Below, one piece after another: positions 39,001 to 60,761 of a stretch of 64,000 nucleotides of DNA. The translations under genes and the position numbers were made by a program. The notes beneath the pieces were generated by a model. That model ran no database searches. It saw only the letters and a list, made by a program, of their open reading frames with translations, and was not told the origin of the DNA. Position 1 is the stretch's first letter. Each line of letters starts with the position of its first letter. Source of the stretch: Paraphysomonas bandaiensis (Eukaryota; Protista; Chrysophyceae); contig CBFFRP010000297.1 in the NCBI GenBank assembly GCA_965644295.1, forward strand, positions 1,007,164 through 1,071,163, written 5' to 3'.

Positions 39001-39478
39001 ACACACAAGCAGGGGGAAGGGAAACGGACGCTCTGTGCCGCTTAGGCATCCCTCCTGAGCCGGGAGGCTCTTCGTATAGTTATAAAACATTCGTTTTATA
39101 ACTCTTCCTTTTCACTCTAAGTATATAATTAATACTATACTTTAAATACTATACTTTAAATACTAATATTAATAATCTATACTTTAAACTGTTTTATAAT
39201 ACTATATACTTTAAATAATAATATTTCTAATTTATCCACTTTATACAATGAAAAGTAACACACCTGACAACATGGATAAAATGGATAATATTTTAAAGGA
39301 TAATAAAAAAGTTATAAAAATAGTTTTGAAATTGAAAAATCCACCCAATCTATCCAGCATGAATAAGAAGAGAAGGAAGACAACTTCTAGATCTTCAAAA
39401 GACTAAAGAGTGTGTCGAATGTGAAAAAGTGATAACGATTATAAAGCACACTCACACGCAAAAAACAATATACAAAAT
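39001..39478 (+). repeat. Left terminal inverted repeat (478 bp)
   Basis: Starts ACACACAAGC; reverse complement of 58150-58627 with no mismatch seen by eye. Confidence 0.96.
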
Positions 39479-39973: not shown

Positions 39974-40429
39974 TTAATGAATATAAGTTTCACTTAATTT
40001 ATTATTTAGTTTTGCAAATTCAATTCTTTGTTCTTCAACACTTTTAATTTGTGATGGTATACATGTAAATACATCAATAATGTCTAAGAAATACAATCCA
40101 TTTGAATGAAACCATTCCATATTAGCTTTATAAACAGAATGATGACAACGAAATTTATTATACTTTGAATCTTTTGAAACATAATATTTTCCATTGCTTG
40201 CATTATAATTACTTAAATCATCAATTTCAAAAGATTTTTCTTTATACATTGTCATTGAATCAGATAGTGCACAATATACATATTTGTCATATAAACTTTC
40301 ATTATTTAAATAGTCTTCAAGAGGTAATATGTATAAGTAAGAGTTAGAATCAAACATAACATGAGGTGATGTTTTTAAAATTTCTTCATCTTCATTGGAA
40401 TGAATAATTAATTTGATGCATTTAATCAT
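39974..40429 (-). CDS. Viral hypothetical protein (151 aa)
   Basis: ORF preceded by the element's TTATATAAG-ATG motif. Confidence 0.65.
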   Translation of the reverse strand: MIKCIKLIIHSNEDEEILKTSPHVMFDSNSYLYILPLEDYLNNESLYDKYVYCALSDSMTMYKEKSFEIDDLSNYNASNGKYYVSKDSKYNKFRCHHSVYKANMEWFHSNGLYFLDIIDVFTCIPSQIKSVEEQRIEFAKLNNKLSETYIH

Positions 40430-40481
40430 CTTATATAATAATAACTTATATTTTATTTTTAAAAAACTTATTTATAAAATA

Positions 40482-41282: not shown

Positions 41283-41332
41283 TGTATATATATATATATG
41301 TTAGAAATAATTATATAATGTATTATTATATA

Positions 41333-42385: not shown

Positions 42386-42431
42386 AAGAATCAATATATT
42401 TTTCTAAACAATGTTATATATACAGTATAAG

Positions 42432-43127
42432 ATGGTTGATATAGTAAATTTTTATGAATTAGATGAAGTGAAAGCCTTTCAAACAGAAGCTATCAATCCT
42501 AACTATGGAAAACATGGAATCAAAGTTCCTTTCAGAATGTTAATCGTTGGAGCATCTGGAGCAGGTAAGTCGAATATCGTTTTGAATATGATTCGTGTTA
42601 TGAATAATACTTTTCACAAGATTATATTATACACAAGGAACAAGAAGGAGCCATTATACGAATACTTAGAAAGTAAGTTAGAAGACAATGATGACTTATT
42701 TGAAGTTCACGAAGGTTTAGAGCATTTAAGAAAAGTGAATATTGACAAAGAGTATTTCGGACAAACATTAATAATATTTGATGACTTAGTCAATGAGAAG
42801 AATCAAGATATAATAGGTGAAATGTTCTTAAGAGGTCGTAAAATTGGTGTATCATTGATATATTTGACTCAGAAATACGCACAAGTTCCAACACTAGTTA
42901 GAGAGCAATTAAACTATTTGATAATGAAGAAGATATCAGGCAAAAGAGATATAACATATTTGATGAGAAATCACGCTTTAAGTGGAGATATTAAACAACT
43001 TTTAAATATGTATAAGTATTGTGTAAACAAAGACATAACGAACTTTTTATTAATTGATTTAGAAGCACCAAGTGAGAGAGCATTCAGAAAGAACTTTAAT
43101 GAAATCTTGAATATAGAAGCATTTTAA
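42432..43127 (+). CDS. A32/FtsK-HerA family genome-packaging ATPase
   Basis: PFRMLIVGASGAGKS (Walker A), LIIFDD (Walker B), RGRK arginine finger, LTQ, VP..VREQ. Confidence 0.93.
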   Translation: MVDIVNFYELDEVKAFQTEAINPNYGKHGIKVPFRMLIVGASGAGKSNIVLNMIRVMNNTFHKIILYTRNKKEPLYEYLESKLEDNDDLFEVHEGLEHLRKVNIDKEYFGQTLIIFDDLVNEKNQDIIGEMFLRGRKIGVSLIYLTQKYAQVPTLVREQLNYLIMKKISGKRDITYLMRNHALSGDIKQLLNMYKYCVNKDITNFLLIDLEAPSERAFRKNFNEILNIEAF

Positions 43128-43161
43128 TAAAATATAATGTGTTTGTATTATATATAGAAAC

Positions 43162-44562
43162 ATGTTATCAAGTTATGAAATAAGAAGATTAGGTCCAAAG
43201 GAAAGAGAAAGATATTTCAGACAAAAGGAACTAAACAACTTAAAGATATTATCAGACATCAGCAAGAACATATCAGAAGAGCAACAACACATAGAAGAAG
43301 GCATTATACCAGAAGTGAGAGATAAAAGAACACTAGCAGAGAAAGAAGAAGATAATATATTACAATTACAGACAGCACAAAAGAACGCTTTAAAGTTGTT
43401 TAAAAATGACGGTAATGAAGCACAAGACTTTTTAAATAAATTAAAGAACAGTAGATATAACGATTTTGTTGACTTTAACAAGTATTTTTTAGGCATGTTT
43501 TCTTCTTTATCTAATAAGGTTGGTAAACTGCGAGCACAAGAAATGTATGATTTTGTTTATAGATATCTTGAAAATCAAAAGAACACATCAGGAATACGAA
43601 ATCTTCTATCATCAGAACAAGAAGTTGATGCAATAATACGACATTTAACTAATATAGCAGGTATATCAAGAGAAACTAGAAGTGATTTAAATGATAGATT
43701 AGAAGCATTACAACAAACTTTAGAATCATTGATTCAGAAATATGGAGAAAGCAAAGTGAAACAAGCTTATGAAATGTCAGATTTACCTGTCTTTGATGAA
43801 GAAGTGGATGAAGACACAATAGTTCCAGAAATACAAAAGATAGATAAAAAGTCATTAGAAAGTTTCTCAAGACAATTTCAAAGTTATCCAGTTATTGACG
43901 ATTACGAAGATTCAATATCATCAATAACGAATCAAGATGAAGATTTCAGTATTGAAAATGATGATTATGACTTTAGCTTTGACGATGAAAGAGAAGATGA
44001 TGATGATGATGAAGAGAAAGAAGAGAAAGAGATAAAAGAAGTAAAAGAAGTATATGATGAAAAGACACAACGAGCCATAAATAAAGTAAACTCAATGACA
44101 TTAGAAGAAATGAAAGCAATGTCAGGTAATGTAATAAGATTGATAAGAATATTGAATCAAGGAGGAGATGATTACAGAGATAGTTCAACACGAGTTAATA
44201 AAGATGATTTAAACGCTTACAATGAAGTTGCACCACTCTTTACACCAAGAGGAGGAAAAGCAACTGGAATACAAAAGAAGAGTTTATACAAATTTGTCAA
44301 AGACTCAGGAATCAAAACGATAGATAGAGTATTAAGAGAAAGAATAGCAGAACAAGAAGGAGATGTCGCAGAAGCAAAACAACCGAGAGAACCGAGAAAA
44401 TTAATTACACGAACTATACACGATATAAGAAGAGAAGAAGAAGAGAAGAAAAGAAAAGACGATGAAGATGAAGTAGAAGAAGAACCACAAGAAGGTGTTT
44501 TAAAAGAAGGTAACGGATTGATGATTAGAAAGATAGGAAGTATGAAAGTTAGATTCGGTTAA
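43162..44562 (+). CDS. Viral hypothetical protein, acidic/charged (466 aa)
   Basis: Long ORF with the upstream TATATA motif, within the morphogenesis block. Confidence 0.75.
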   Translation: MLSSYEIRRLGPKERERYFRQKELNNLKILSDISKNISEEQQHIEEGIIPEVRDKRTLAEKEEDNILQLQTAQKNALKLFKNDGNEAQDFLNKLKNSRYNDFVDFNKYFLGMFSSLSNKVGKLRAQEMYDFVYRYLENQKNTSGIRNLLSSEQEVDAIIRHLTNIAGISRETRSDLNDRLEALQQTLESLIQKYGESKVKQAYEMSDLPVFDEEVDEDTIVPEIQKIDKKSLESFSRQFQSYPVIDDYEDSISSITNQDEDFSIENDDYDFSFDDEREDDDDDEEKEEKEIKEVKEVYDEKTQRAINKVNSMTLEEMKAMSGNVIRLIRILNQGGDDYRDSSTRVNKDDLNAYNEVAPLFTPRGGKATGIQKKSLYKFVKDSGIKTIDRVLRERIAEQEGDVAEAKQPREPRKLITRTIHDIRREEEEKKRKDDEDEVEEEPQEGVLKEGNGLMIRKIGSMKVRFG

Positions 44563-44611
44563 TATTCAATAGTATAAAATATAATATAATATAATAGTAT
44601 ATTATAGAATA

Positions 44612-45070
44612 ATGACAATTAAAAAGAACTATAAAAAGTTTTACAAACTACAAATCAATGTAATGAAGCTATTAGACAATAAGTTAATGATATTGTATGA
44701 GACAGGGTCACCTTTCAGCAGATATATAAAGACACGAACAATAAGTCCAGAGTTTGCGAGTGTGTTGTTAAACTTGATAGACACAAATGAACTGAACTAT
44801 GAAACGATAAAACGACTAACAGAAGAAGAGAAGAAGTTATTTAACATCATAATGACACAATCAGGAGCAAAGACAGAATTGAAATACAAAGAACCAGAAC
44901 TAACGGAAGAAGATCTGTTAAAGAGATTTGAACTATTACAAGCTAGTATAAGAGCAGGAAACAATAGCAATGAAGTATTAAAAGAAGGAATAGACATATT
45001 GAAAAGATTAAATAAGTTAGGTAGAATTGATGATGACCAGTTAACAGAAATTTTGGAGAGTTTAGAATAA
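44612..45070 (+). CDS. Conserved Polinton-type small protein
   Basis: C-terminal LLKRFELLQASIRAGNNSNEV resembles, from recall, the RL.LL.AS..AGN motif of Maverick/Polinton accessory proteins. Confidence 0.65.
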   Translation: MTIKKNYKKFYKLQINVMKLLDNKLMILYETGSPFSRYIKTRTISPEFASVLLNLIDTNELNYETIKRLTEEEKKLFNIIMTQSGAKTELKYKEPELTEEDLLKRFELLQASIRAGNNSNEVLKEGIDILKRLNKLGRIDDDQLTEILESLE

Positions 45071-45107
45071 CTATTTGTAAAATTATTATATAAGTAAATA
45101 TTATATA

Positions 45108-45995
45108 ATGTCAGACACAAATTATAACTACAACACAATTATATTAAACAAAAACAATATAGTTCCAGGTTCAAAGAATTCAGTGTTCAAATATACTTTC
45201 AATCAATCATTAAGACTAAACAATTGTTCACTAGCTATTCAAAGTATCAATATGTATTACAGTTGGTTTAACATATCAGACTATTTCAGAAATAACAAGT
45301 TTTCATATGTATGGTTTGACAATGCAGGAGAATTGAACACAACTATAGATATAACAATTCCAGACGGCTATTATACAGTTGAATTATTGAATAAGTTTTT
45401 ACAATCTGAATTAGAGAAAAGAGGTCATTACTTGGTTCAAGAAAGCACGGGAGATTTTGCTTATCACATAGAATTCATTTCAAATGTAAGTTATTATTCA
45501 GTTCAATTGAATGTGTATGCAATGATGACAGAAGCTCAAGCAGGGACAGATTTCGTTAAAGGTTCAGAGACTTGGTCTTATCCTTCAACAGCCACAACAC
45601 CTCAACTAGTTGTTTCAAATTCTTCTTCATTTGGAGACTTAATAGGATATTCTAATGGAACATATCCATCAACAGCGTCAAGCACAAATACAACTTTTCT
45701 GTCAGATAAGACGCCGAATATGACGCCTGTTAGCTCTATAAATGTCGTTTGTTCAATGACAACTCAAAACGGCTTTAGTAATCCTGATGGACTGTTATAT
45801 TCATTTACAAGTGGTAGTGTTGAATTTGGAGGTATGATAGACAGAGAACCAAAAACGGAGTCTTTTGTTAAGGTGAGAGATGGTTTATATTCAAGCTTTA
45901 CAATAGAACTATATGACCAAGACATGAGAAGATTAGATATAAGAGACGCTGAAACGGTTATAATGTTAATTATTAAGAGTCCTGATGAAGATTAA
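45108..45995 (+). CDS. Minor capsid protein (penton, single jelly-roll)
   Basis: F...L.L...SLA..SI.MY.SWFNI, ITIPDGYYTVELLN, FGDLIGY, FTIELYDQD.R.LD pattern; size ~295 aa; lies upstream of the MCP. Confidence 0.82.
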   Translation: MSDTNYNYNTIILNKNNIVPGSKNSVFKYTFNQSLRLNNCSLAIQSINMYYSWFNISDYFRNNKFSYVWFDNAGELNTTIDITIPDGYYTVELLNKFLQSELEKRGHYLVQESTGDFAYHIEFISNVSYYSVQLNVYAMMTEAQAGTDFVKGSETWSYPSTATTPQLVVSNSSSFGDLIGYSNGTYPSTASSTNTTFLSDKTPNMTPVSSINVVCSMTTQNGFSNPDGLLYSFTSGSVEFGGMIDREPKTESFVKVRDGLYSSFTIELYDQDMRRLDIRDAETVIMLIIKSPDED

Positions 45996-46036
45996 AACGA
46001 TATAGTATATTTTTTTATATAATACTATTATATAAG

Positions 46037-46351
46037 ATGTCATATTATAAAATGATTGGTGGAAGAATGAGAAGACAAGTTCTTCCTTCATATGAAGAGT
46101 TAATACAAGAAGCAACCAAGAAAGAAGATAAGATAAAAGAAGACAGAAGTGTTCCCGTGATTGTTGAACATAAACAGAAAGTAGAAAACATAAAGAAACC
46201 TAATATAAGTTTGAGTGATAAACTGATGAGTATCAAAGTAAAACCAAGAACGGAAGGTAAAGGACAAGAGAGAACCAAAGATGAATTATTTGAAAGTGTA
46301 AACAATGTGTCAATGGAAAGATTAAAGAAATTTGCTAATTTAAAAGTATAG
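46037..46351 (+). CDS. Small basic/charged viral protein, candidate core protein
   Basis: ORF between penton and MCP; contains the adenain-type site MIGG|R. Confidence 0.65.
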   Translation: MSYYKMIGGRMRRQVLPSYEELIQEATKKEDKIKEDRSVPVIVEHKQKVENIKKPNISLSDKLMSIKVKPRTEGKGQERTKDELFESVNNVSMERLKKFANLKV

Positions 46352-46399
46352 AATAATTTATTATAAAATATTTTATAATCTAAGTGTATATTATACAAT

Positions 46400-48100
46400 A
46401 TGGACAAGTTAATAGTTGAACAATCTTTTGAAAAAGCAGAAGAGAATGTAAGTGACTTTGTGGAGTGGGATTATTCTAAATTGAGTGATTCACAAACTTC
46501 AGGTAATTATTCAAGCAATCAAACAATATTTGAAACTACTACACTCAGTAACAATGGTAAAATAAGTGATTACACGGATGGATTTATGTCAATGCCAATG
46601 GTTGATGTTGTGACAGGTAAAAATGGTGGGAATGACATTGACTTTACAGCAGCGCACATAAAGGAGAGTGATTTGTTATTATGCAGGAAGAATTCAAGTT
46701 TAAATATGATAGATTCAGTATCTATTCAATATCAAAATCAAGCAGGAATTCAAGAGACAAGAAATATTAATCAATACTTAATCTTTAAACAACATTCAGA
46801 AATGTCATTAGATGATGAATATGTAAACGGACCAACAATAGGATACGCTAAAGACACATCGGATTCTTGGAGTTATGACGAAGCAAATGGTTTAATGAAT
46901 AATAACAACGCTTTAAATCATTTAAATGGTATTGATTACATCAATAAATGCAATAAAGGAATGTATGAAAGACAACAAGTTTTTAGTAAGGTTGTTGATA
47001 CTGCCAATGCATCTAAGAGAGATTCAGTGTTGGGTGATAATGATAAAATTAACAACATGAATCGTAGTCATGTTGTGAATGTATCAGTGAATGGTTCAAA
47101 GTATAAAGCTTACTATTATACTTTGATTATTCGTCTTAAAGATCTTTCAAGTATATTTGAAAAATGCCCTCCTATGAAAGGTGGTCTTTTCAAAATAACA
47201 GTAAATTTTAATCAGTGTATATTTAAAGTAACTAAAACAGATAATGACACACTATCATTTTCTCCAGCAGACTTTAACGGAAGAGGAACAAACCCCTTGA
47301 TGGTTTCAAGTTCTCAATATAAAACTTTGATAGGTGCAGCCAACAACGAATCAACGGCAGGTAATGTAATTTGTGGAGGATACACTATACCAGATGGAAC
47401 AGAACTTACAATTAGTTGTAACATAGCAAAACCTCAATTTTACCCACATAATACACTTAATGTCACACCTTGTAAGGAGCAGAACTGTTTTCTTCACATT
47501 CCTTCTTATGTAATGAAACCTGCACTTCAGAAAAGATATTTAGAGAGTCCACAAAAACAAGTTATATATAACGATGTTGTTTTATTTCAACTTTTCAATA
47601 AGACAGGTCAAATTAATGAACTCATCACAAATGGTTTATCATATGCTAAGAGAATGATTATTTGTCCTTTCATTAGTTCATCAGGCAATGGAACGAATCA
47701 AATTCACCCGTTTCAATCACCTTTTACAACTGAACCCGCAACCTGTAGTCCTTATACCATTCAAAACCTTCAAGTTAAAGTATCATCAACAAATCTATAT
47801 CCCAATCAAATCAATTATTCATATGATATGTTTATGAGAGAGCTTAACGGCAAATATGGTGTAAACTCTAACTTAACGACTGGTTTATGTAGTTCAAGAA
47901 TCAATTTAAAAGACTTCATTAATACATACGGTTATATCGTAGTTGATTTAAAACGCAAACACACTGACGACGAAAGCGTTCCTTTATCTATTCAACTTGA
48001 ATGCAATATAACAAGTCCTAAGCCTCTTGATTTTAATATCTTCATTGAACAGGAGAAATCATTCGGACTTGATGTAGCAACAGGAAGAAGAGTAGATTAA
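46400..48100 (+). CDS. Major capsid protein (predicted double jelly-roll, 566 aa)
   Basis: Largest beta-rich ORF of the morphogenesis block, flanked by penton, ATPase and protease; C-terminal IQNLQVKV...YGYIVVDLKR...IQLE pattern typical of Polinton/PLV capsids. Confidence 0.82.
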   Translation: MDKLIVEQSFEKAEENVSDFVEWDYSKLSDSQTSGNYSSNQTIFETTTLSNNGKISDYTDGFMSMPMVDVVTGKNGGNDIDFTAAHIKESDLLLCRKNSSLNMIDSVSIQYQNQAGIQETRNINQYLIFKQHSEMSLDDEYVNGPTIGYAKDTSDSWSYDEANGLMNNNNALNHLNGIDYINKCNKGMYERQQVFSKVVDTANASKRDSVLGDNDKINNMNRSHVVNVSVNGSKYKAYYYTLIIRLKDLSSIFEKCPPMKGGLFKITVNFNQCIFKVTKTDNDTLSFSPADFNGRGTNPLMVSSSQYKTLIGAANNESTAGNVICGGYTIPDGTELTISCNIAKPQFYPHNTLNVTPCKEQNCFLHIPSYVMKPALQKRYLESPQKQVIYNDVVLFQLFNKTGQINELITNGLSYAKRMIICPFISSSGNGTNQIHPFQSPFTTEPATCSPYTIQNLQVKVSSTNLYPNQINYSYDMFMRELNGKYGVNSNLTTGLCSSRINLKDFINTYGYIVVDLKRKHTDDESVPLSIQLECNITSPKPLDFNIFIEQEKSFGLDVATGRRVD

Positions 48101-48167
48101 ACAAAAGTTTTTTAACATGATAATATTTAATATAAACTAATTATTATCTCAACATAATATATATATA

Positions 48168-48962
48168 ATGCATCAAGTAAAACTCAATCTATCTGAAGCT
48201 CAATTAAGAAAGTTATCAAACAAACACAATATACAAGTTAGACCTGACCAAATCGGCTTCGGCTTTCCAGTTGCTTTATCTGACAAGAACTTAAAAAAAC
48301 TTGAAAACTCTTACAACAAGTCAAAAGGAATGCGATTAACATTAGACGATAATGAAATTGAAGGTGGTAATCTAAAACAAAACATCAAAAAAGCTTTCAA
48401 TAAGACTAAGAAACAAGTTAAAAAGACATTCAAAGACCCAAACTTAGGAAGAAAGATTAAGAACACATCAAGAAAAGTTAAAAACACTGTCAATGATTTT
48501 GCTGTTGTTGGTGATTTAGGTATTCCCGTTGTTAGTGATTCATATAATCTATTGAATACTACAACCCGTTTAGGTGATAAGTTAGTTAGAAGTGGTGTTG
48601 ACCATATTGAAGATAGAAAAGATGATAAGAAAAGAAGTCAATTTGTTGATGATTTCAATGCACTGAGAGAACATGCTAACACTCAATCTTCTGTTCCTCC
48701 TCCTCCTCCTCCAACTGAAGGAAGCGGTAATCCTTATCTTCCATCAAAGCAAGTAAAGAAAGTTAAAAAGAAACTGACTGGTTCATCATTTAGAACATTA
48801 GGTGCTGGAGTAGTAGATTTAGATTACAAAGGAAAGAAACCAATTAAACTTAAAGATGATGGAAGTAATCTAGTCAGAGCAGGACATCCAGGTTTTGACC
48901 CTGTGAGCACTCCTTTACCAAATAAGTGTTGCTATTGTCCTCATTGTGGAAAGAAAAAATAA
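48168..48962 (+). CDS. Lys-rich putative core (pVII-like) protein
   Basis: V.LNLSEAQLRKL N-terminus, highly basic, IEGG|N protease site, poly-Pro run, C-terminal CCYCPHC. Confidence 0.65.
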   Translation: MHQVKLNLSEAQLRKLSNKHNIQVRPDQIGFGFPVALSDKNLKKLENSYNKSKGMRLTLDDNEIEGGNLKQNIKKAFNKTKKQVKKTFKDPNLGRKIKNTSRKVKNTVNDFAVVGDLGIPVVSDSYNLLNTTTRLGDKLVRSGVDHIEDRKDDKKRSQFVDDFNALREHANTQSSVPPPPPPTEGSGNPYLPSKQVKKVKKKLTGSSFRTLGAGVVDLDYKGKKPIKLKDDGSNLVRAGHPGFDPVSTPLPNKCCYCPHCGKKK

Positions 48963-48979
48963 TATTGATATAATATATA

Positions 48980-49489
48980 ATGGATTACACAACAAGCAAT
49001 AATGATTTAATACATTATCTTATGTTGAAAGGTATAAACCTTAATCAAATAACAAGCAAGAATAAGTTATTAGGCAAAGCTAAGAACAATGGAAACTATA
49101 TAATAAACTTGGAAGATAGTGATAAAGGAAATGGAACACATTGGGTAGCTTTAAAGTGTTTTAAGAATGTTTGTTTATACTTTGACTCATATGGAATTGC
49201 ACCTCCTAGAGAAGTTATAAGTTTTTGCAACAAGAAGAAGTTAATATACTCATGTGACGAAATACAACATAGAAAAGATACCTCTTGTGGATTCTATTGT
49301 GTATACTTTCTTTATCATTTCAACAATCTGAAGAGTTACAAAGACAATATAAGAAACTTAGGATATCACTTAAACTTATTCCTTAAACCATTTGACACAA
49401 ACAACACTGAAAAAAATGTGAGAATACTGAAAGAGAGATTCAATAAACTATATGAAAAAGACTTAAAGACTTATTTTAATTCAAGTTAA
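48980..49489 (+). CDS. Adenain/Ulp1-like maturation cysteine protease
   Basis: IINL, GTHWVAL (His), YFDSYG (Asp), IQ.....SCGFYC (Gln and Cys). Confidence 0.92.
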   Translation: MDYTTSNNDLIHYLMLKGINLNQITSKNKLLGKAKNNGNYIINLEDSDKGNGTHWVALKCFKNVCLYFDSYGIAPPREVISFCNKKKLIYSCDEIQHRKDTSCGFYCVYFLYHFNNLKSYKDNIRNLGYHLNLFLKPFDTNNTEKNVRILKERFNKLYEKDLKTYFNSS

Positions 49490-49532
49490 AGATTTATGTA
49501 AATTTTTAATATCATGTTATTATATAATATAG

Positions 49533-50120
49533 ATGAAAAAACTTTCAACTCCCTCGCAACCACCAAGAGAAACAATGCCTGACACTTATAAATCAATTGT
49601 TGAAGTTAATTCAAATCCTTTTGATTCATACAAGGCATCACCTGACATTCAAAGTCAAGAACCAGTAAGACAAGAAACAGTAAGACAAGGAATAAAGAGA
49701 CAAGAATCCGTTAAAGACTTACCACCGAAGACACTTTATAATCATAATCTCAAACGGCTTAAATCATATAGAAACTTAAGAAAGAAGTATAAACTAGATA
49801 ATCAAAAAGCTATCTTCTTAGAGAACTTGAAAGAAACTTTAAAACCTCTTGACCCAAGAAGCAATAAGTATGACAGTGAGTTATTAGTTGCTGTTTTAGA
49901 CATTGCTGAATACTTCTTTATCTATGGAGATAGAGACCAAAGAAACGCTATGAAAATGGAAGCTGTTGTTGAACTAATGAAACCATACTTTAACAATGAT
50001 GAAACATACTTATTACACAGTATAAACAATGTAATGTATAGAGTTAAAAAGAGTAATGTATTTAGAAGATTAGCAACAAGACTAAGAAATTTTTTTTCAA
50101 TGATGATGAAAGCTTCTTAA
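49533..50120 (+). CDS. Viral hypothetical protein (195 aa; -1 frame extends to 50206)
   Basis: ORF with upstream TATATA motif; T8 run at 50090-50097. Confidence 0.7.
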   Translation: MKKLSTPSQPPRETMPDTYKSIVEVNSNPFDSYKASPDIQSQEPVRQETVRQGIKRQESVKDLPPKTLYNHNLKRLKSYRNLRKKYKLDNQKAIFLENLKETLKPLDPRSNKYDSELLVAVLDIAEYFFIYGDRDQRNAMKMEAVVELMKPYFNNDETYLLHSINNVMYRVKKSNVFRRLATRLRNFFSMMMKAS

Positions 50121-50239
50121 GGGGTCTTCTGAAATCGTTGATTGTTGAGATTCTAGTTAAAGTTATCATTCAAAGAATCTTTCCAATTCTATTAATAGCA
50201 TTGTAAAGTTATAAAACATTTTCTTAATCTATTATATAC

Positions 50240-50561
50240 ATGAGTGATTTCGTAATCTGTTTAAAAAACGAATTGTATGCAATACCAAAGACTAAGAAAC
50301 CACAAGTTCAAACTGAAATATCCAACATAGTCAAACAAATTGAAGGATACAAAGCCTTAATCAAAGACTTAGAAATACAAAAAGAAAAAAACAAGTTGAA
50401 CTTCTTAATGAAAGACAACAGATATATTATAAGAATCCAATCAATAGAAATTTACCAAGTGAACAACTTGAAAAAACTAAAGCTTATGAGAAGAGACAAA
50501 AGTTATTAAAAGAATACGATGATTCACACGGAACTTATATAAAACCTGAACAAGGCTATTA
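50240..50561 (+). CDS. Small coiled-coil viral protein (frame break at the A7 run ~50385-50391)
   Basis: ORF 50240-50509; the -1 frame continues KQVELLNERQQIYYKNP...PEQGY to TAG at ~50561. Confidence 0.55.
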
Positions 50562-50634
50562 GTTTGATTGTTACAATGTTACATATACATATGTATATAT
50601 AATACTAACTAACTAATCACAGCAACACTAAAAC

Positions 50635-50820
50635 TTATAAATTATACATCTTCTGATACTTCTCCATAGTAATAATCATCATCTTTATATCTTCAATCTC
50701 TTTATAACATTTCTTATGATACTCTCTAGACTTCCAATCGTTATTTATACTTCTCATAGCTTTGTTGCAGTGTTTACACTTTGTTTTAATCTCTTTAGGT
50801 TTTCCACTATCTTTAGGCAT
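50635..50820 (-). CDS. Small zinc-finger protein
   Basis: CKHC...HKKC; preceded by both conserved upstream motifs. Confidence 0.6.
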   Translation of the reverse strand: MPKDSGKPKEIKTKCKHCNKAMRSINNDWKSREYHKKCYKEIEDIKMMIITMEKYQKMYNL

Positions 50821-50887
50821 GATATATAATATGTATATATAATATTTTTTTAAATTGTTTTATATTAATTTATTAATTTATATATTA

Positions 50888-52336
50888 TTAATAATATGAA
50901 CCTACATTAGATATAACTTTCGTCGGTGCTGTCCCTGAATTGGTATATATTATTGTTATCGTTTGTAGTATTGCTCCTGATGTTGTTACATTTGAAATGT
51001 CTACGTTTGCGAGTCCGCCAGAGACATTTAAAGTTTGTGACACTGTATTAACTTTTAAAGTGTTTATGTGTGCTTTATAACTTGATGTATCTATTATAAC
51101 TGACACTGTGAAAGAAGTGTTTGTTAAGTTACTTGAATTGACATTCGTTATATCAAGTTGAAAGTTTGTGTCTGCTGTCAATCCATTGAAATATACAATT
51201 GCTCCATTGTTATAATCATATGTCAAAACATCTGATGCAAACGAATATGTTGTGCTGAGTGACTCGCTTATTTGTTTAGTTGTTATATTGCCTGTTATTG
51301 TTCCGCCTGTTAAATTCAATTTTGTATTTTCAAGTGTTGTAATATTACCGTCTATTGTATTTAATAAGTTATCAATTGTATCATTAAATGTATAGTCATA
51401 AACTAAAGAAGAATTCAATTTATTATTAACATTAATAATGTCATTTTTAGTTAATATATCATTAGTGTTTGTTGTTATTTGAGTTTGTAAGTTTGTTATA
51501 TCATTGTCATTGTTTGTTATTTGAGTTTGTAATGATGTTATATCATTATCATTGTTTGTTATTTGAGTTTGTAATGATGTTATATCATTAGTGTTTGTTG
51601 TTATTTGAGTTTGTAAATTTGCTATGTCTGTATCATTGGAATTTATTTGATTCTGCAAATTTGTATCTTCTGTTTGTAGTGTTGTCACGTCATTTTGTAA
51701 GTTTGTTATGTCTGTATCGTTATTAGTAATCTGAGTTTGTAAATTTGCTATGTCTGTGTCGTTATTAGTAATCTGAGTTTGTAAATTTGCTATGTCTGTG
51801 TCGTTATTAGTAATCTGAGTTTGTAAATTTGCTATGTCTGTGTCGTTATTAGTAATCTGAGTTTGTAAATTTGCTATGTCTGTATCATTGGAATTTATTT
51901 GATTCTGTAATATTGTATCTTGAGCTTGTAAATCTGCGACATCAGACTGCAAAGCTGGAATATTAATTAAATCTATGTCTTGAAGAGCATCAAGACCGTT
52001 AAAACTTGCTGTCAATGTGTTTAATTGTGATTGTATAGTTTCATTGGTATTTATTCCGTCTAATGTTTGAATTTCATCTTCAGTAAGGTTTAATAATCTT
52101 GTGTTCATATCCAATAACATCGTGTTCTTTGAATCTGTGAAAGCGACTGTTTGAGGTTCATTATTAATGGTTATGTTCTTACCAGAGACGATTTCAACAT
52201 TCTCCGTAAATCTCGCATTGTCTAATCTTGCATATTCTGCCATGTTTAATATAACTCTTGCTGTTTCTCTCTGTTTAAAGTTCTCTGCGTTGAATATGGT
52301 ATTATTACTTGTTTTCGGCTTCGTATATATTGACAT
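50888..52336 (-). CDS. Fibre/spike-like virion protein B with long coiled-coil stalk
   Basis: N-terminal MSIYTKPKTSNNTIFNAENF, 14-aa repeats NNDTDIANLQTQIT, LNLTGGTITGNI neck, beta-rich head. Confidence 0.75.
   Translation of the reverse strand: MSIYTKPKTSNNTIFNAENFKQRETARVILNMAEYARLDNARFTENVEIVSGKNITINNEPQTVAFTDSKNTMLLDMNTRLLNLTEDEIQTLDGINTNETIQSQLNTLTASFNGLDALQDIDLINIPALQSDVADLQAQDTILQNQINSNDTDIANLQTQITNNDTDIANLQTQITNNDTDIANLQTQITNNDTDIANLQTQITNNDTDITNLQNDVTTLQTEDTNLQNQINSNDTDIANLQTQITTNTNDITSLQTQITNNDNDITSLQTQITNNDNDITNLQTQITTNTNDILTKNDIINVNNKLNSSLVYDYTFNDTIDNLLNTIDGNITTLENTKLNLTGGTITGNITTKQISESLSTTYSFASDVLTYDYNNGAIVYFNGLTADTNFQLDITNVNSSNLTNTSFTVSVIIDTSSYKAHINTLKVNTVSQTLNVSGGLANVDISNVTTSGAILQTITIIYTNSGTAPTKVISNVGSYY
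51460..51900 (-). repeat. 42-bp coding tandem repeats in fibre B
   Basis: GTTATTAGTAATCTGAGTTTGTAAATTTGCTATGTCTGTGTC repeated, plus diverged copies. Confidence 0.9.
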
Positions 52337-52383
52337 CTATATATAATATAACAACATTATTATATTCTATAATTAAATTAGGT

Positions 52384-52974
52384 TTACAATTTTGTTTCGT
52401 AGTTTATCTCAATTCTGGTATGAGATGACATTGAAAATTTCTCATAGGCATCGAATGAGGGTATTCTAAGAGTTTTGACGTTAGCATCAAAGTCAAGATT
52501 TTTTACGAAATAAGGAATTTTAACTATTTTTACATCTCCATAGATATACATATCAAGTTTTTCAATTGAATTTGGTAAATTTGTTATATTTTTATTAGCT
52601 TCATCATTTGTGTCATCGACTTTCAAATCTGTAATTGAATTTGGCAAATTGTTCAGAAACATATGATAAGGTAATACACGATTTATCCCAATATTTTTAA
52701 GTTTGTTGCTTAAGTTATTAACGTAATTATCGCATGGGAATATTGATATTTCAAGTGAATGTATGTTTAGTTTATATGATAATTGATAAATTTGTTTTCT
52801 TATAGTTATATCATCTACATAAATGCCAATTTTTAATGTCTCGCAATTTTCTATTTCATTTATCAATTCTATTTTGTTTAGCAATCGTCCAAATGTATTC
52901 GCCACTGGCAAATACATCTCATCAGCTATAACTCGTAATTCTGTTTCAGACAACTTTTTCAATTCAAGGCTCAT
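52384..52974 (-). CDS. FNIP/IP22-like leucine-rich repeat protein
   Basis: LNNLPNSITDL, ITNLPNSIEKL, IVKIPYFVKNL repeats. Confidence 0.65.
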   Translation of the reverse strand: MSLELKKLSETELRVIADEMYLPVANTFGRLLNKIELINEIENCETLKIGIYVDDITIRKQIYQLSYKLNIHSLEISIFPCDNYVNNLSNKLKNIGINRVLPYHMFLNNLPNSITDLKVDDTNDEANKNITNLPNSIEKLDMYIYGDVKIVKIPYFVKNLDFDANVKTLRIPSFDAYEKFSMSSHTRIEINYETKL

Positions 52975-53035
52975 AATACAATATAATATGTTTATATAAT
53001 ATTTCTTTAAAACATTTTAAAACATTTTATAATAA

Positions 53036-53254
53036 TTATTCATTTATTTGATTCTTCCTTTCTTCAATCATCTTCTTCTCTTCTTGTGTTCGTTTACATA
53101 ATGCTGTCTTATAGTGTAACTTGATTCTATTCTTGCAAACTTGTCTGTCACATAACTCACATTTGACCTTTTCACAATTGTAAGCTATAAGTTTATCTCT
53201 GTTCTTCTTGTAGTATTCTTTCTGATATGCAATGTTCTTTTCTGACTTATTCAT
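53036..53254 (-). CDS. Small zinc-finger protein
   Basis: YQKEYYKKNRDKL followed by CELC...HYKTALC. Confidence 0.65.
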   Translation of the reverse strand: MNKSEKNIAYQKEYYKKNRDKLIAYNCEKVKCELCDRQVCKNRIKLHYKTALCKRTQEEKKMIEERKNQINE

Positions 53255-53351
53255 ATTATTAATAATACTATATATTTTTATTTTTTTAAATTACTTTATA
53301 TAAAATTAACGCAAATGTATCTTTCATATTTTATATATACTTATTATATAT

Positions 53352-54368
53352 ATGAACAATAAATCATTCAATGACATAATAAAAAAACTTGATATTGATG
53401 AAACATTTACTAAAGAAGGAAAGAAGCAAAAGAAATTTAATAATATTAGAAAGAATACTGTTCAAAAGGCTAATTACAACATGATGGCAGATTTGTTAGA
53501 ACTTCCTACAACTTCAAAAGGATATAGATACTGTTTTGTTATATGTGACTTATTCACAAGACGATTTGACATTGAACCAATCAAGAATAAAGATTCTCAA
53601 ACAGTTTTAAATGCTATGAAAGAATGCTTTAAACGACCATATATTGATAAACCTTATGCTTCTATTAGAACAGATGATGGAAATGAATTCAAAGGAGTCT
53701 TCTTCAAATACTTATATGACAACTCAATCTTACATAAAGTTGCTCTTCCTAATAGACATAAACAATTGGCGAGTGTTGAAGCATTAAATAAGCAATTAGA
53801 CAGACTATTCAACGGTTATATGAATAAAAAAGAGAAAGAAACAAAGAAAGTATATCGTGAATGGACTGATATAATACCAATAGTCAGAAAAGATTTAAAC
53901 GAATTCAGAGAAAACTTAACAGTTAATGAACCTGGATTCATTGACCATTCTATTAAACAAAAATATAAAGTAGGTGATGTTGTATATGAAAAACTCAACA
54001 CTCCTGAAAATGCTTTAGGACATAAACAAAATACAAAGAACTTTCGTGTTGGTGATTATAGATATTCACAAATACCAAAGAAGATTATAAAAGTTGCTTA
54101 TTTCACTGATAAACCTTATCACAGATATATATTAGAAGGATTACCTAATGTCTCTTACTCTGAATATGAACTCATGAAAGCTAAAGATGAAAAGGAAACG
54201 AAATATGAAGTTAAAAAGATCATCGGAAAGAGAACAAAGAATAAGAAAACTGAATACTTGATATGGTGGAAGAACTATAGAAAGAATGAAAGCACGTGGG
54301 AACCTGAAAAAAACTTAATTGAAGATGGATTAAAAAACTTGATTGATGAATACAATAAAAAGGATTAA
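53352..54368 (+). CDS. Retroviral-type (rve) integrase with C-terminal chromodomain
   Basis: MADL (D), ICDLFTR, RTDDGNEF (D), VEALNK (E); chromodomain YEVKKIIGKR...EYLIWWKNY...STWEPEKNL. Confidence 0.94.
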   Translation: MNNKSFNDIIKKLDIDETFTKEGKKQKKFNNIRKNTVQKANYNMMADLLELPTTSKGYRYCFVICDLFTRRFDIEPIKNKDSQTVLNAMKECFKRPYIDKPYASIRTDDGNEFKGVFFKYLYDNSILHKVALPNRHKQLASVEALNKQLDRLFNGYMNKKEKETKKVYREWTDIIPIVRKDLNEFRENLTVNEPGFIDHSIKQKYKVGDVVYEKLNTPENALGHKQNTKNFRVGDYRYSQIPKKIIKVAYFTDKPYHRYILEGLPNVSYSEYELMKAKDEKETKYEVKKIIGKRTKNKKTEYLIWWKNYRKNESTWEPEKNLIEDGLKNLIDEYNKKD

Positions 54369-55819
54369 CAATCGTGTGTTTCATCCTTACCCATTAACTT
54401 ATTCGTTCTATGTGAATACAAAAAACCGCACTTTTTACACTTATGAAAATAGGTATTTGTGTTTTTCCATAGTATATTGCCTGTTGTTTTTGATTCTTTC
54501 AATGGTTTGTATTTGTCTTTAAATTCGTGTTTTCTGTTTAATACTATACCATCTGTATGAATTCTTATTATCTTATGTAATATACCTTCTCTATCTATCA
54601 TCTTCGCTACAAAACAACGACAATGTGACATAAGAAATGACTTCATTCTTGCTATGTTGTATTTATAAGGTTGGTCTTTGTCGATCAATGTAAAGTCAAT
54701 CTTTATATTATCATCACTGTCTACACTCATCTTCTCTTTCAATACCTTATATTTTGTATTATTCTTATCTGTTATGTCTGAGACATCTTCATCATCAAGT
54801 TTCATAAACTCCTCTTGATTATAATACAGTTTCTTATGTTCACACAAGTAGCCCCAAATACTAGACATTAAATGCTTGATTAACATATTCTTATTCTTAT
54901 CTTTCATACTCTTTAATTTGTCATACCAACTCTCAAATATAACTTTACTTTCTATTAAGTCATCTTCTTCATATATCATGGTATTATAATCTTTAGCTTG
55001 TTCATTTATCTTAAACTCTAATTCAAAGTTGTCTATTTGTGAATATACATATAACAAGTCTATATGAGTATACCAATTATCACTTGAAAATGAAAACTTC
55101 TTATAAAACTGTGAAGTACTTGTTTTATTCTCACATTCTTTTATTGTTATCTTGACATTGTATACTCCATATTTCAACTTACCTTTTGATAACTTCTTCA
55201 TAAACTTATCTTGAGACATCATCTTGTATTCTGGTTGTGAGGTAGCAATCTTAAAATCACTTTTAGACAGAATATAAGGATAGAAAGCTCCATAGTCGTA
55301 TCCATAACACTTTATAACATCATTTTTATATTCCTCATCTAAACAACAAAGACCAGCATTATGACACTTTTCCAAAACATAAGATTCTTTGAAGTTTATG
55401 TTTTCTAATCTAACTTTCCTATTGTTCATATTTACACTGTTCTTTTTCATATTTGAGAATCTTTCAAATGTCATTATTAAAGCACTCTTATGATTATAAT
55501 ACTTCTTATAAAATATACCATCTTTTAACAATACATCGCAACTTTCTTTAAAGTCTTTCATATACTGTCGTATTCCTTCTTTTGAGCCTTCATAACCGTC
55601 AAACAGTTCAAAGTAATTATAACTTCGTTTATTGTTCATTCCGTCATCATATCTCTCTTGTTCTGTTTGACAATTTAGATCATCTTTATCGTGTGACATG
55701 TAATAGACTTTGCCGCTCTCTCTATAGAAGAATCTTAAATAACGGCTTTCGCCTGTTTCTTTGTTATATACTCTCTCTTCACCATTCTTACTTATGAACT
55801 TTCTCTTATTAATACTCAT
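54365..55819 (-). CDS. Short, divergent family B DNA polymerase (pPolB-related)
   Basis: Motif A YGYDYGAFYP, motif B KHLMSSIWG, ARMKSFLMSHCR, motif C RIHTDGI; no clear exonuclease domain. Confidence 0.8.
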   Translation of the reverse strand: MSINKRKFISKNGEERVYNKETGESRYLRFFYRESGKVYYMSHDKDDLNCQTEQERYDDGMNNKRSYNYFELFDGYEGSKEGIRQYMKDFKESCDVLLKDGIFYKKYYNHKSALIMTFERFSNMKKNSVNMNNRKVRLENINFKESYVLEKCHNAGLCCLDEEYKNDVIKCYGYDYGAFYPYILSKSDFKIATSQPEYKMMSQDKFMKKLSKGKLKYGVYNVKITIKECENKTSTSQFYKKFSFSSDNWYTHIDLLYVYSQIDNFELEFKINEQAKDYNTMIYEEDDLIESKVIFESWYDKLKSMKDKNKNMLIKHLMSSIWGYLCEHKKLYYNQEEFMKLDDEDVSDITDKNNTKYKVLKEKMSVDSDDNIKIDFTLIDKDQPYKYNIARMKSFLMSHCRCFVAKMIDREGILHKIIRIHTDGIVLNRKHEFKDKYKPLKESKTTGNILWKNTNTYFHKCKKCGFLYSHRTNKLMGKDETHDC

Positions 55820-55874
55820 TATTATATATTATATATATATAATAATTCTTTATATTATTTTAAATTGTTTTAAT

Positions 55875-56234
55875 TTATTTTATATTTTTTTTAATATTAT
55901 TATTATTATTATTTTTTACATAAAAATCAACATATTCATACTCATAAAACTTTTTGTCATCTTTAACTTTGTTTTTCATATATTCTATGTCATCCCAGTC
56001 TCTTATATCATTATCTGCGAAACTTTTTATTGTTAGATATCTGTTGTCTATTGTTTTTACTAATATACTTATTCTGTTTCTATCTATATCTTTTTTATCT
56101 ATTAAAGCTCTTGTCAAAGTTCTTATGTCATTAATTGTTACCTTCTTACCTTCTTTAGGTAACAATCTTTTGGCACCTATTCTGTATTTTCCTTTTGTTA
56201 TTTCGCCAACATCTTTAACTTCAAAATTCTGCAT
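55875..56234 (-). CDS. Viral hypothetical protein (119 aa from ATG 56234)
   Basis: ATG preceded by TATATA and the AAAACAATTTAAA motif; lies between helicase and PolB. Confidence 0.65.
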   Translation of the reverse strand: MQNFEVKDVGEITKGKYRIGAKRLLPKEGKKVTINDIRTLTRALIDKKDIDRNRISILVKTIDNRYLTIKSFADNDIRDWDDIEYMKNKVKDDKKFYEYEYVDFYVKNNNNNNIKKNIK

Positions 56235-56289
56235 GTATATATATATAATAAATATATATATTAAAATTTTAAATTGTTTTATATTATTT

Positions 56290-58065
56290 TTAAAAAAAAT
56301 CAGGGAAATTTTCAATATCTATGTCAGTCAAATCTGTCTGTTCTGGTAACATTACGAGATTGACATCTTTGTTAACTTTAGTCTCTTTCGTTGTCTTCTC
56401 TTTTGTCTTGTTGACATCTTTGTTAACTTTGGTCTCTTTTGTCGTGATTAGTTTGTTCTTTGCTTTGATTACAGTGTTTACAGTGTTTACACCAAAGTCA
56501 AATGACTTGTTCAAGTCTTCTTCGTTATATTCATGTTCGTCAAGTTCGTCAAGTTCATCAAGTTCATCTAACTCTTTAATAAACTTATCTTCTTTTGTTG
56601 TCTTCTTGTTATCACTCTTCTCAAGTTCTTTTATTCTTTCTTTCAATAGTTTGATTTCATCTTTCAATCTTTTGACTTCTTCGGCTTCTTCATCTTGAAT
56701 ACAGTTAGTTTCATGAGTGTTATCACCATCAAATTCATCATATTTACATATCCACTTCTCTTTTTCTGCTATAGAATGTAACTCTTTCACAGAATAATTA
56801 TATCTGAATCCATTAGACTTTATAGTTGTTATTTTGACTTCTTCTAGTTTTTGATAAAATGTATTTGCCTTTAATTTTCTTACTCCACTACTTGATGCCC
56901 ATTCTGCGTAGTCATCATATAAACTCTTTCTTGGAACTCTCTTAATTGGTAATCTCTTTAAAACAAACATCTCTTTAATGAATCTATAAGCACTGTCTAA
57001 GTTACTTGATATAGCTACTCTCTTATTCTCTGTCTCTGGAAAGTCTCTTTGAGGATAGTATTTTGAACATTCTTCGTCAGTGATTTCAGTTAGTAAGTAT
57101 GAGAAGAACGCTTCGCCACACTTCATATTAAAACATGTGTCTCTTAAGTTGTTAAAATAATCAAAATCTTGCTTTCTTGCTAAAGATATATCTAATTCTG
57201 CTGCTCTACGTCCTGACGAATCTTTCATATGATAGTTGGTAGTTGCTACATAGTTGTTTATATTAGGTGCATCAAATTGCTTTTCGTATTTGTCAGCATA
57301 CAATGTAGTTTTTTCAGTCACATAAGTTTTAATTTTAGATGAGAATCTTTTATAATCATTGTCTGTTAAGTCTTCAATATCTTCTACTATTACGAATACC
57401 TTACCAAGTAGTAGCTTGTTATTTGCTGTGAGGAAAGGTGATAAATCTGTAACTCTTACTGATACACTGTGTCCAAACACAAACTCATAAAAGAAATCTG
57501 GTTCTGTTGATTTTCCAACTCCTTGAGCACTTGTTCTTCTAACTATTATCAATTCAGTCTTTTTACCTCTTGCTATTAAAGCATACCACAATAACAACGC
57601 CTTCAATGTCTTCTCATCATTGTTACATGAGACCTCTCTCATGAAATCAATAAACTTATAGACTGACTCTTTAGTTTTCTTATCATACTCTTTGAAGGAC
57701 TTGTAATTACTATGTAAGAATGAGCCAGACTCATTTATATAGTATTTAGAATTGTTCTTGTATATTCTCGGTTTACCTATTTTACATGCTATCTTGAAAA
57801 TTTTGTTGTTCTTGTTCATTTGTTTCGTTATCTCTTTTTCTTTTTCAAGTTTTACAAGAACTTCGTTTTTGAAATCTTTTTTAGTCTTCATAACAAATTT
57901 GTCTTCTTCAACATCATAAAAGTAGTATAGACCGCCTTGTATTTCGTAGTAATACTTAAACACATACTTTATTACATCTAGATTGTCTTTAAGTTCTCCA
58001 TGTTTCTCTAAGTGTTGCATCTTTGAAATACTGAAGTCTTCCTTTGGTAAAGTTAGAATTTCCAT
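56290..58065 (-). CDS. Superfamily 3 (D5/NrS-1-like) helicase
   Basis: Walker A QGVGKST, Walker B VIVED, motif C ATTN, arginine finger GRR; winged-helix-like LYDDYAEW..; no primase motif evident. Confidence 0.88.
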   Translation of the reverse strand: MEILTLPKEDFSISKMQHLEKHGELKDNLDVIKYVFKYYYEIQGGLYYFYDVEEDKFVMKTKKDFKNEVLVKLEKEKEITKQMNKNNKIFKIACKIGKPRIYKNNSKYYINESGSFLHSNYKSFKEYDKKTKESVYKFIDFMREVSCNNDEKTLKALLLWYALIARGKKTELIIVRRTSAQGVGKSTEPDFFYEFVFGHSVSVRVTDLSPFLTANNKLLLGKVFVIVEDIEDLTDNDYKRFSSKIKTYVTEKTTLYADKYEKQFDAPNINNYVATTNYHMKDSSGRRAAELDISLARKQDFDYFNNLRDTCFNMKCGEAFFSYLLTEITDEECSKYYPQRDFPETENKRVAISSNLDSAYRFIKEMFVLKRLPIKRVPRKSLYDDYAEWASSSGVRKLKANTFYQKLEEVKITTIKSNGFRYNYSVKELHSIAEKEKWICKYDEFDGDNTHETNCIQDEEAEEVKRLKDEIKLLKERIKELEKSDNKKTTKEDKFIKELDELDELDELDEHEYNEEDLNKSFDFGVNTVNTVIKAKNKLITTKETKVNKDVNKTKEKTTKETKVNKDVNLVMLPEQTDLTDIDIENFPDFF

Positions 58066-58149
58066 ATCTATATAATAGTATTATATTTTATTTTTTTAAA
58101 TTGTTTTATATTAATTTAAAATAATTGTTTTATATTATTTAAGAAAAAG

Positions 58150-58627
58150 ATTTTGTATATTGTTTTTTGCGTGTGAGTGTGCTTTATAATCGTTATCACT
58201 TTTTCACATTCGACACACTCTTTAGTCTTTTGAAGATCTAGAAGTTGTCTTCCTTCTCTTCTTATTCATGCTGGATAGATTGGGTGGATTTTTCAATTTC
58301 AAAACTATTTTTATAACTTTTTTATTATCCTTTAAAATATTATCCATTTTATCCATGTTGTCAGGTGTGTTACTTTTCATTGTATAAAGTGGATAAATTA
58401 GAAATATTATTATTTAAAGTATATAGTATTATAAAACAGTTTAAAGTATAGATTATTAATATTAGTATTTAAAGTATAGTATTTAAAGTATAGTATTAAT
58501 TATATACTTAGAGTGAAAAGGAAGAGTTATAAAACGAATGTTTTATAACTATACGAAGAGCCTCCCGGCTCAGGAGGGATGCCTAAGCGGCACAGAGCGT
58601 CCGTTTCCCTTCCCCCTGCTTGTGTGT
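58150..58627 (-). repeat. Right terminal inverted repeat (478 bp)
   Basis: Ends ...GCTTGTGTGT at 58627; mirror of 39001-39478. Confidence 0.96.
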
Positions 58628-60761
58628 GGAGGCCTCTAGAAGGAGCAGAGAGTCTCCCAAAGGGGGGGAGGAGAGGAGTTCCTCCGAGGAATCTGATAGG
58701 TCAGAGAGATCGAGGGAGAGATCTCGCAGTTATTCCGACTCCGGGGGGGAGGAATATGAAGAGCGGGGAAGGTCCCGCAGGCGCTCTGCCTCAAGGAGAG
58801 AGGAGTATTATGAGCGGAGTGGGAGATCGAGAAAGGGACGATCGAGGGATCGAAGTAGTAGATCCTCGGGTAGAAGATCGAAAAGATCTCGTCGCGAAGA
58901 GAGCTCCAGAAGGTTGAGAGCCTCTGAGCTAGAATTGGAAAGTCTGCGGCAAGAGGTGCAGCAGTTAAGGTCGTCGTTGGAGGGACAGCGTTCGACGGGA
59001 GGGGACAGGTCCGGAGGAGCACCTGCCATACCGCAACAAAGCAGTATAGGGAGGGCAGAGGAAGCTAGCTCGTCCAGTAGTACCCTCCTGGTTACGTCTA
59101 ATGACGTTCCTCCATTAGTCGCGCTGACTTATGACGCGGTGGAGGATTATATTGAGAAGTGTCGCCTTTACTTTCACAAGAGTGGTGGGAGAGAGGTAGA
59201 CCGATCGCTAATCTCGGCCAAAATGGCGGCGAAGATAGACTTTATGAGGGGAGACGTTAACGGGAAAGTTGACGACTGGAAGGATCCGAAGGTGTTACCG
59301 TCGGAGGATTTCTATGCGTTCCTTCGTAAGATGGTGAAGGATCAGGGGCATGTGGAGGTAGTGGAACCTTTTCAACATATTCGCGAGTGGGCTCGCGAGG
59401 TTCGCACCTTCCGGAATGTCAAGGATGTTATGGACTGGGGTGCGGACCTCAAGTTAAAATTGGAAAAGGAGGAAGGATCCGGCACATGGGAGGAGAATAA
59501 GGTTTGGATCGAAGATTTCAAACGTTCCCTCCGGATTGATCTTCCGTTCCATGATCAGGCTCGAAGGAACAGATTTCTGACTGAGAAGGTTCAGCCCATT
59601 TTTGAGAGTTTGTCAGAGGACAAGCGAAATTTGTTGGGTTATTTGACGGCCTTGCACAAAGCCGTTACAGCTATTAGGGATGGCTGGGAGGCTGTGGGGC
59701 CTTTTGACTTATTTGTGGCAAGGCAGTGGCCCCGAGGATCGATGGGAGGACGATCCGAGGCTGACCAACGGGATCGGAAGGGGGCCGATCAACGGGAGAG
59801 AAAGCGCACGCATTCACCTGCGAGGAGTTCGCAAGGGGGTTCGACTAGTGCTGGAAAAGCGCCAAAGAGAGCAAAGAGTAGCTCTCAAACGGATGTGTCG
59901 AAAGTGCCAGATTCAGATCGATGCAATGTGTGTGGTCGCCCAAGGGAGTGGCACAAGAGTGCGGAGTGTCCACTTAAGCAAGCTGCGGGGGCGAACTTGG
60001 ATCCAAACGTAAAGTGGAGAGAGTGTGCAGTGGCTAAGGATATTTTGGCCAAGAGGGGCCAACATACTTTGCCTAGAGAGGGATGGGTCTTAAGGCAAAG
60101 CGGTTCATATGGAAAGGGCTCCAAGGGTGAGTCCCATGATGTGTATTCTGATGTTATGGCTATTATGGCCCTTAAGTCTTTTTCTTCATTGCCATTCATA
60201 ACGGTTGTTGTATGCAATGAACAGGGAAGGAAAAGGACATGTAAAGCTCTACTGGATACGGGTGCGTCGGCTAACTTTATTAGTAAGGATGTAGCTGAAT
60301 GGTTAGTAGATAGTGGTTCTATTCCTATTCCCGTAAGTAAGAATATTGCTGGGGGTTTTAAATCAGCAAGTGCTTTGTGTGAGAGGGGTGTGTCCCTCAA
60401 TGTAGAGATCTTTACGGAGGTAAAGGAACCTCCAGTGTTGCAAGCTCGCATAGATGCATGGGAGTTAGATCTAAATTTTGAATTGATTTTAGGGGTACAT
60501 ACTGTACGTAATTTAGATTTAGTAGTGCAGTGCCCTAGTGCTTTCATGAGCTCAGATAAGGCTCGAAGGGTAGCCGACGTAGTGGGAGACAGTGCATTCC
60601 CTCTTGCGAGAGAGAGAGATGATCAGTCCGGGGGAGCAGTGTCTCCGAGCCTTGGCGTGCACGCGTCTTACCCTTGTGGGGGGAACGAGCCAGCGTTCGT
60701 CTTCCATTGCGTAAAAATTATAATCTTGAGGTTCGAGGGAAGTTGGCCCCTCTGGAAGTAG
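58628..60761 (+). CDS. gag: Gypsy gag-protease (N-terminus missing)
   Basis: RS-rich region, knuckle-like CNVCGRPREWHKSAEC, aspartic protease ALLDTGASANF and ILG. Confidence 0.85.

Follow-up and report, generated by a model that had tools for sequence, protein, structure and literature searches.

We analyzed a stretch of 64,000 nucleotides (nt) of Paraphysomonas bandaiensis DNA (GenBank assembly GCA_965644295.1, contig CBFFRP010000297.1, positions 1,007,164 to 1,071,163; hereafter the window), which contains an integrated virus bounded by terminal inverted repeats (TIRs). One of its open reading frames (ORFs), of 484 amino acids (aa), encodes a shortened mavirus-type family B DNA polymerase (PolB), which likely starts synthesis on a separate terminal protein (TP), predicted to be the product of a 119-aa ORF immediately upstream (ORF119). 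The coordinates of both ORFs and of the other features of the element are given in Table 1.

Identification of a minimal mavirus-type polymerase

The polymerase chain consists of an exonuclease remnant, the palm, the fingers, insertions at the places of TPR1 and TPR2 (beta-rich, at about residues 190-290 and 326-385 of the model), little or no thumb at its short C-terminus and an optional Cys/His tail; both the TP and the vOTU protease regions are absent. The palm is of the PolB fold and carries motifs A, B and C. The mavirus protein-primed PolB (pPolB) was the top match in the fold search, and the closest folds were those of mavirus and phage protein-primed enzymes. The fold alignment spans 363 residues with phi29 versus 172-280 with RNA-primed PolBs; this extent, like the beta-rich insertions, would be compatible with TPR1 and TPR2. 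The second fold match was a 339-aa 'DNA polymerase' of Harvfovirus sp. (BFVD A0A3G5A8K3, target TM 0.77), which may belong to the family and come from a small virus associated with it.

The family comprises 975 representatives at E <= 1e-30 (median length 426 aa in the best 150), with a family median of 139 aa ahead of motif A. Across 89 family proteins with about 25-45% identity, the motif-B Lys and the two metal-binding Asp residues (D175 and D423) never vary (89/89), and the motif-B Asn is replaced by Ser in 85. The dN/dS ratio of the polymerase is about 0.1, indicating purifying selection. Exonuclease motifs I-III, whose positions were inferred from the range of the phi29 alignment, are not preserved: the first strand has no conserved acid, D74 is found in 4/89 proteins, and only D89 is largely retained. 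The initial annotation had described a short PolB with HTD in motif C and without obvious proofreading or TP domain, and had proposed an exonuclease-less replicase; the description was confirmed and the proposal supported, and the relaxed selection that it had considered was not seen. It overstated how atypical the motif changes and the exonuclease loss are, since these have already been reported for mavirus (PMC11071308), and the mavirus pPolB is the proper comparison rather than the Polinton pPolBs and piPolBs to which it referred. HTD was also rejected as a novelty, loss of the first Asp being already published for mavirus-type enzymes, and the CKKC tail, present in 16/89 proteins, was rejected as a core feature.

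N-terminal extensions occur in 17 of the best 150 representatives, none of them ORF119-like. Ten carry NUMOD4 and/or HNH_3 (P0061, P0074, P0090, P0126, P0132, P0137, P0163, P0166, P0171 and P0178), which is a DNA-binding addition derived from homing endonucleases. The family profile aligns only to residues 260-578 of another protein, P0042, in which the first motif-C Asp is also lost. The N-terminus of P0042 (GWRS, with a Cys motif at residue 115 and GHY at residue 189) may represent TP and vOTU, following the description in PMC11071308; in the ESM Atlas it scored no higher than 0.80, and phage records contained nothing that matched P0042. Neither the polymerase nor ORF119 was matched by Pfam, no PDB sequence matched the polymerase as a single sequence or as a profile, and no relative was detected when viral contigs were scanned with the polymerase, with alignments A2 and A4 or with P0042.

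Conserved gene order and the candidate terminal protein

Gene order was compared in the best 80 of 84 metagenomic loci and in four viral contigs recovered by an RVE alignment scan; the polymerase is present in 83 of these loci. The conserved order is helicase > ORF119 > polymerase < integrase. A same-strand ORF119 homologue lies upstream of the polymerase in 45 of the 48 loci with at least 450 nt on that side (within 200 nt in 35), the misses being L035, L044 and L085, the last of which has a profile-negative 147-aa ORF in that place. A convergent RVE integrase follows in 50/56 loci with at least 500 nt downstream, and all 23 loci with at least 1500 nt upstream have a large P-loop ORF there (16 recognized by profile and seven by Walker A, four of the latter with DUF5906 or D5_N). 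The gap between ORF119 and the polymerase is 42-140 nt, with all three phases represented, and longer in 10/45 loci. Moreover, identical copies of the 14-nt motif found upstream of the polymerase begin at 56280 (ORF119), 58107 (helicase) and 50861 (a 61-aa ORF); these four copies, all on the minus strand, are the only ones in the element, and none occurs in window positions 1-38000. Because gaps come in all phases, longer gaps exist and the motif is shared, the sequences argue for helicase, ORF119 and polymerase being separate, co-regulated genes. In 28 loci, the distances of ORF119 and polymerase gave a rho of 0.66, compared with 0.24 and 0.31 for each against the adjacent integrase (descriptive values).

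The helicases long enough to compare form four clusters. In L007, L022, L033, L048, L063 and L080, a second cluster replaces the window-type superfamily 3 helicase (S3H) before the same TP-polymerase pair, and D5_N or weak DUF5906 was found in three of these six helicases. L043:60-3848 is rearranged: here the helicase and the ORF119 homologue are found downstream of the polymerase and point towards it from the opposite strand. In one of the 83 loci (L009:1946-3189), the polymerase is split in two ORFs, by assembly error or decay.

PRD1-like TPs were defined by a four-stranded sheet with two helices and an optional b0 strand (the little-finger fold), and by a residue between a2 and b4 that is Ser or Tyr. 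The structure matches of ORF119 in the PDB are Y-family little fingers, and its Tyr85 is conserved in 53/54 homologues and placed within the short helix a2 in the model. Iterating the ORF119 profile on neighbouring ORFs raised the number found from 22 with the window protein alone to 51 at convergence, and L082 and L083, outside the profile training, contain homologues at E 2e-21 and 1e-20. Candidate TPs are about 105-120 aa long. Matches of the ORF119 profile to PDB sequences were at chance level only, BLAST and HHalign comparisons of ORF119 with P0042 and the PRD1 TP were not significant, residues 1-110 gave no usable match in the ESM Atlas, and no natural ORF119-polymerase fusion was found among longer proteins or the 17 N-extended representatives. 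The analysis supports the pairing of the polymerase with the adjacent helicase, and a likely role of ORF119 as the primer protein, which the initial annotation had raised as a possibility.

Proposed replication mechanism

The (AC)n end of the element would permit a slide-back step, as is known from phi29-type systems. After excision, the polymerase would bind ORF119 at the genome end and attach the first nucleotide to Tyr85, using D175 and D423. The S3H, on which the polymerase would depend, would unwind ahead of it and offset the lost exonuclease and thumb, and the RVE integrase would insert the linear product with a 5-nt duplication. It seems that such a system may have arisen by fission of a mavirus-like TP-vOTU-palm protein, after which the vOTU protease would have become needless and been deleted; the direction from fused to separate is suggested by shared losses only.

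The whole could well represent a widespread, undescribed module: a protein-primed polymerase of about 400 aa without exonuclease activity, vOTU or thumb, primed by Tyr85 of a separate 105-aa TP that doubles as a little-finger-like clamp, and served by an SF3 helicase that can be exchanged. Few protein-primed replicases would be as small, and the module would represent an independent return to a tectivirus-like gene pair, and would be passed on as one block between virophages on the one hand and Polinton-like viruses (PLVs) on the other.

Alternative explanations

It is conceivable, though unlikely, that ORF119 is instead a non-covalent, little-finger-like DNA-binding or processivity subunit replacing the thumb, with priming by a host primase, terminal fold-back or an integrase-made 3' end. 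The little-finger matches, the absence of most of the C-terminal region from the polymerase and the placement of Y85 in a helix fit such a subunit, and the co-divergence of ORF119 with the polymerase suits any partner. However, PRD1-like TPs give the same little-finger matches, ORF119 takes the place of the fused TP in the gene order, a near-invariant Tyr within an acidic patch suits a linking residue, and no primase gene was recognized in the element by Pfam. The accessory and primer roles of ORF119 are not mutually exclusive. Self-priming by the polymerase in the manner of piPolBs, which also lack the first motif-C Asp (PMC11071308), would agree with the missing TP domain and leave ORF119 another role. 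We regard this as improbable, given that the nearest folds are mavirus and phage protein-primed enzymes, that the same Asp is lost in the TP-bearing mavirus enzyme and in P0042, and that the element is linear with perfect TIRs.

There is similarly little reason to expect a dead PolB derivative kept as a helicase scaffold, with genome copying left to a polymerase of the host or of a giant virus: both metal-binding Asp residues and the motif-B Lys are invariant in all 89 proteins, and the view that such enzymes are inactivated was reversed in 2024 (PMC11071308). As the copy is endogenous, lies inside a retrotransposon and has flanks not matching one insertion site, ORF119 and the polymerase might also be pieces of one decaying or frameshifted Polinton pPolB gene. 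This reading is very improbable and largely refuted by the identical split in 45 loci, with gaps in all phases and some inserted ORFs, by the 55 nt between the two ORFs, which leave no room for a vOTU, and by the low dN/dS and the size and length of the family. Protein priming on ORF119 remains the most likely explanation.

Distribution among virus types

A Sputnik-type major capsid protein (MCP) was found in L084. L082 and L083 contain the full module together with ATPases and proteases that have their relatives in L084. A capsid gene like that of the window is present in L050 (E 1.9e-14), and another capsid gene in L031 and L049. On the basis of the neighbouring capsid, ATPase and protease genes in L082-L084 and L050, the replication module is assigned to both virophage-type and PLV-type genomes. 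This agrees with parts of published work that describe replicase mosaicism and a pPolB-DDE association (10.64898/2026.10.13.758929, 10.64898/2026.07.28.741278). Family enzymes may already stand unnamed in published trees: 41 Ochromonas danica pDNAPs flanking mavirus polymerases have been reported, with the remark that Pfam misses many (PMC12220804). As this large family is missed by Pfam, many virophage and PLV genomes may hold an unannotated polymerase and TP.

The integrated element

The element spans 39001-58627, bounded by inverted repeats of 478 nt that are 100% complementary, and has a GC content of ~28-30% compared with 35-48% in the flanks. Its ends (39001-39007 and 58621-58627) are (AC)n / (GT)n runs; sequencing run X8 has a variant end whose TIR sequence differs, yet also finishes in a (GT)n run. 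Beyond the right TIR, Pfam detected RVT_1 and rve, and the host DNA of the window contains microsatellites and LTR retrotransposons. Parts of the window were found in 18 of the 22 sequencing runs listed, marine metagenomes among them. The boundary at 58627/58628 is supported by loose contig ends in three runs, in which other letters precede the right flank at 58628; in one X3 contig, the repeat end continues into the mirror of the right-hand site at 58628. Together, these contigs imply a 5-nt target duplication inside the Ty3/gypsy element. The left flank of the window (38990-39001) does not match the right-hand insertion site (58628-58640). Because the two flanks are not from one insertion site, two insertions may have been joined in this copy as a chimera, either in the assembly or by recombination.

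Among the other genes, the S3H has a Walker A motif (GVGKS) at 182 and a Walker B-like EDI near 228. No virophage MCP family was matched in the element by Pfam, and the candidate MCP had no relative among the viral contigs scanned.

Table 1. Features of the integrated element (window coordinates)
Feature	Position	Strand	Remarks
Left TIR	39001..39478		Starts with (AC)n dinucleotide run; pairs with 58150-58627
F5/8 type C domain protein	40482-41282	-	
A32-like packaging ATPase, 238 aa	42411..43127	+	Pox_A32 E 2.4e-18
Presumed minor capsid protein, 295 aa	45108..45995	+	Assumed from resemblance and position; no Pfam match
Candidate MCP, 566 aa	46400..48100	+	Putative label; no Pfam match
Adenain-like cysteine protease, 169 aa	48980..49489	+	Peptidase_C5 E 4e-4, slightly short of the cut-off; motifs for His, Asp and Cys present
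ORF of 61 aa	50635-50820	-	CxxC and HxxC; 14-nt motif upstream, as for three replication genes
Coiled-coil repeat protein, 482 aa	50888-52336	-	14-aa period; fibre-like
Weak FNIP-repeat protein	52384-52974	-	
Zinc-finger-like ORF, 72 aa	53036-53254	-	Homologues close to the module at several loci, L082-L084 among them
RVE integrase with chromodomain, 338 aa	53352..54368	+	rve E 2.7e-8, Chromo E 3.1e-13; convergent with polymerase
Minimal mavirus-type pPolB, 484 aa	54365..55819	-	D423 codon of motif C at 54551-54553
14-nt AT-rich motif (repeat family D4)	55858..55871	-	Upstream of polymerase start
ORF119, candidate stand-alone PRD1-like TP, 119 aa	55875..56234	-	Candidate linking Tyr85, codon 55980-55982
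S3H, 591 aa	56290..58065	-	DUF5906 E 9e-11
Right TIR	58150..58627		(GT)n run at end, followed by Ty3/gypsy-type retrotransposon

Comparison with known systems

No description of a pPolB with a split TP and without vOTU and exonuclease was found in the literature covered, including passages of PMC12721341, PMC8547959 and PMC5499653, with figures, bioRxiv supplements and the 2024 polinton-like supergroup review outside its scope. That polinton and virophage polymerases prime with their TP domain has been predicted from structures (PMC11071308), and this is hard to test as long as TP, protease and polymerase are joined in a single chain that cleaves itself. In the present system the parts would be separate, namely a protein of 13 kDa carrying a single candidate linking Tyr and an enzyme of 50 kDa. 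In vitro tests could then address protein priming, polymerase activity when the first Asp of motif C is missing, and the proposed trade-off between exonuclease and helicase.

In mavirus, the pPolB is a TP-vOTU-palm protein of 617 aa that has a remnant of the exonuclease and lacks the first Asp of motif C, and the S3H is encoded separately (Krupovic et al. 2024, PMC11071308). The present system shares these three features as well as RVE and TIRs, but its polymerase is about 200 aa shorter, TP and vOTU are outside the chain and the candidate TP has its own gene. It also differs in the motif-B Ser, the A32-like packaging ATPase and the lack of a virophage MCP match. Relative to Polinton pPolBs and their TP-vOTU-EXO-PALM arrangement, no TP or vOTU is fused ahead of the exonuclease, whose motifs I-III are not kept. 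The piPolBs of pipolins share the replaced first motif-C Asp, but they retain the exonuclease and need no TP; piPolB was not among the named fold matches, which is a weak test.

Tlr1-like pPolB-S1H fusions of PLVs and transpovirons have likewise lost the exonuclease and the first motif-C Asp and gained a helicase, but in one chain with TP-like, vOTU and SF1 helicase parts, whereas three genes and an SF3 helicase are found here. Gossevirus (GKS1) PLVs, as described in parts of 10.64898/2026.06.19.733378, PMC7805220 and PMC10120064, are also integrated viruses of the protist type in which a cysteine protease occurs together with RVE and pPolB, whereas the replication module reported here also occurs beside virophage-type genes. 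In tectivirus PRD1, the TP gene (P8, 259 aa) is directly upstream of a vOTU-free polymerase (P1, 553 aa) and the linking residue is a Tyr (Y190), as it would be here if Y85 is right; the PRD1 polymerase carries DTD, with 123 aa following motif C, and neither protein here has a significant sequence match to P8 or P1.

According to PMC11071308, all eukaryotic pPolBs have a fused TP, with the exception of adenovirids and one coral polinton (Stylophora pistillata), which retain vOTU. The candidate TP described here lacks the helical extensions reported there for stand-alone TPs. As in adenovirids, with their polymerase and pTP, and in the coral polinton, the TP would be encoded apart from the polymerase. 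Their polymerases keep an inactive or active vOTU, which is gone here, and the adenovirid enzymes keep the exonuclease, of which only a remnant is left in this family. Deletion of vOTU would be one step beyond the adenoviruses, which retain it in inactive form. The system would lengthen the short list of eukaryotic viruses whose TP is split off; among the cases seen here, vOTU is deleted in this one only.
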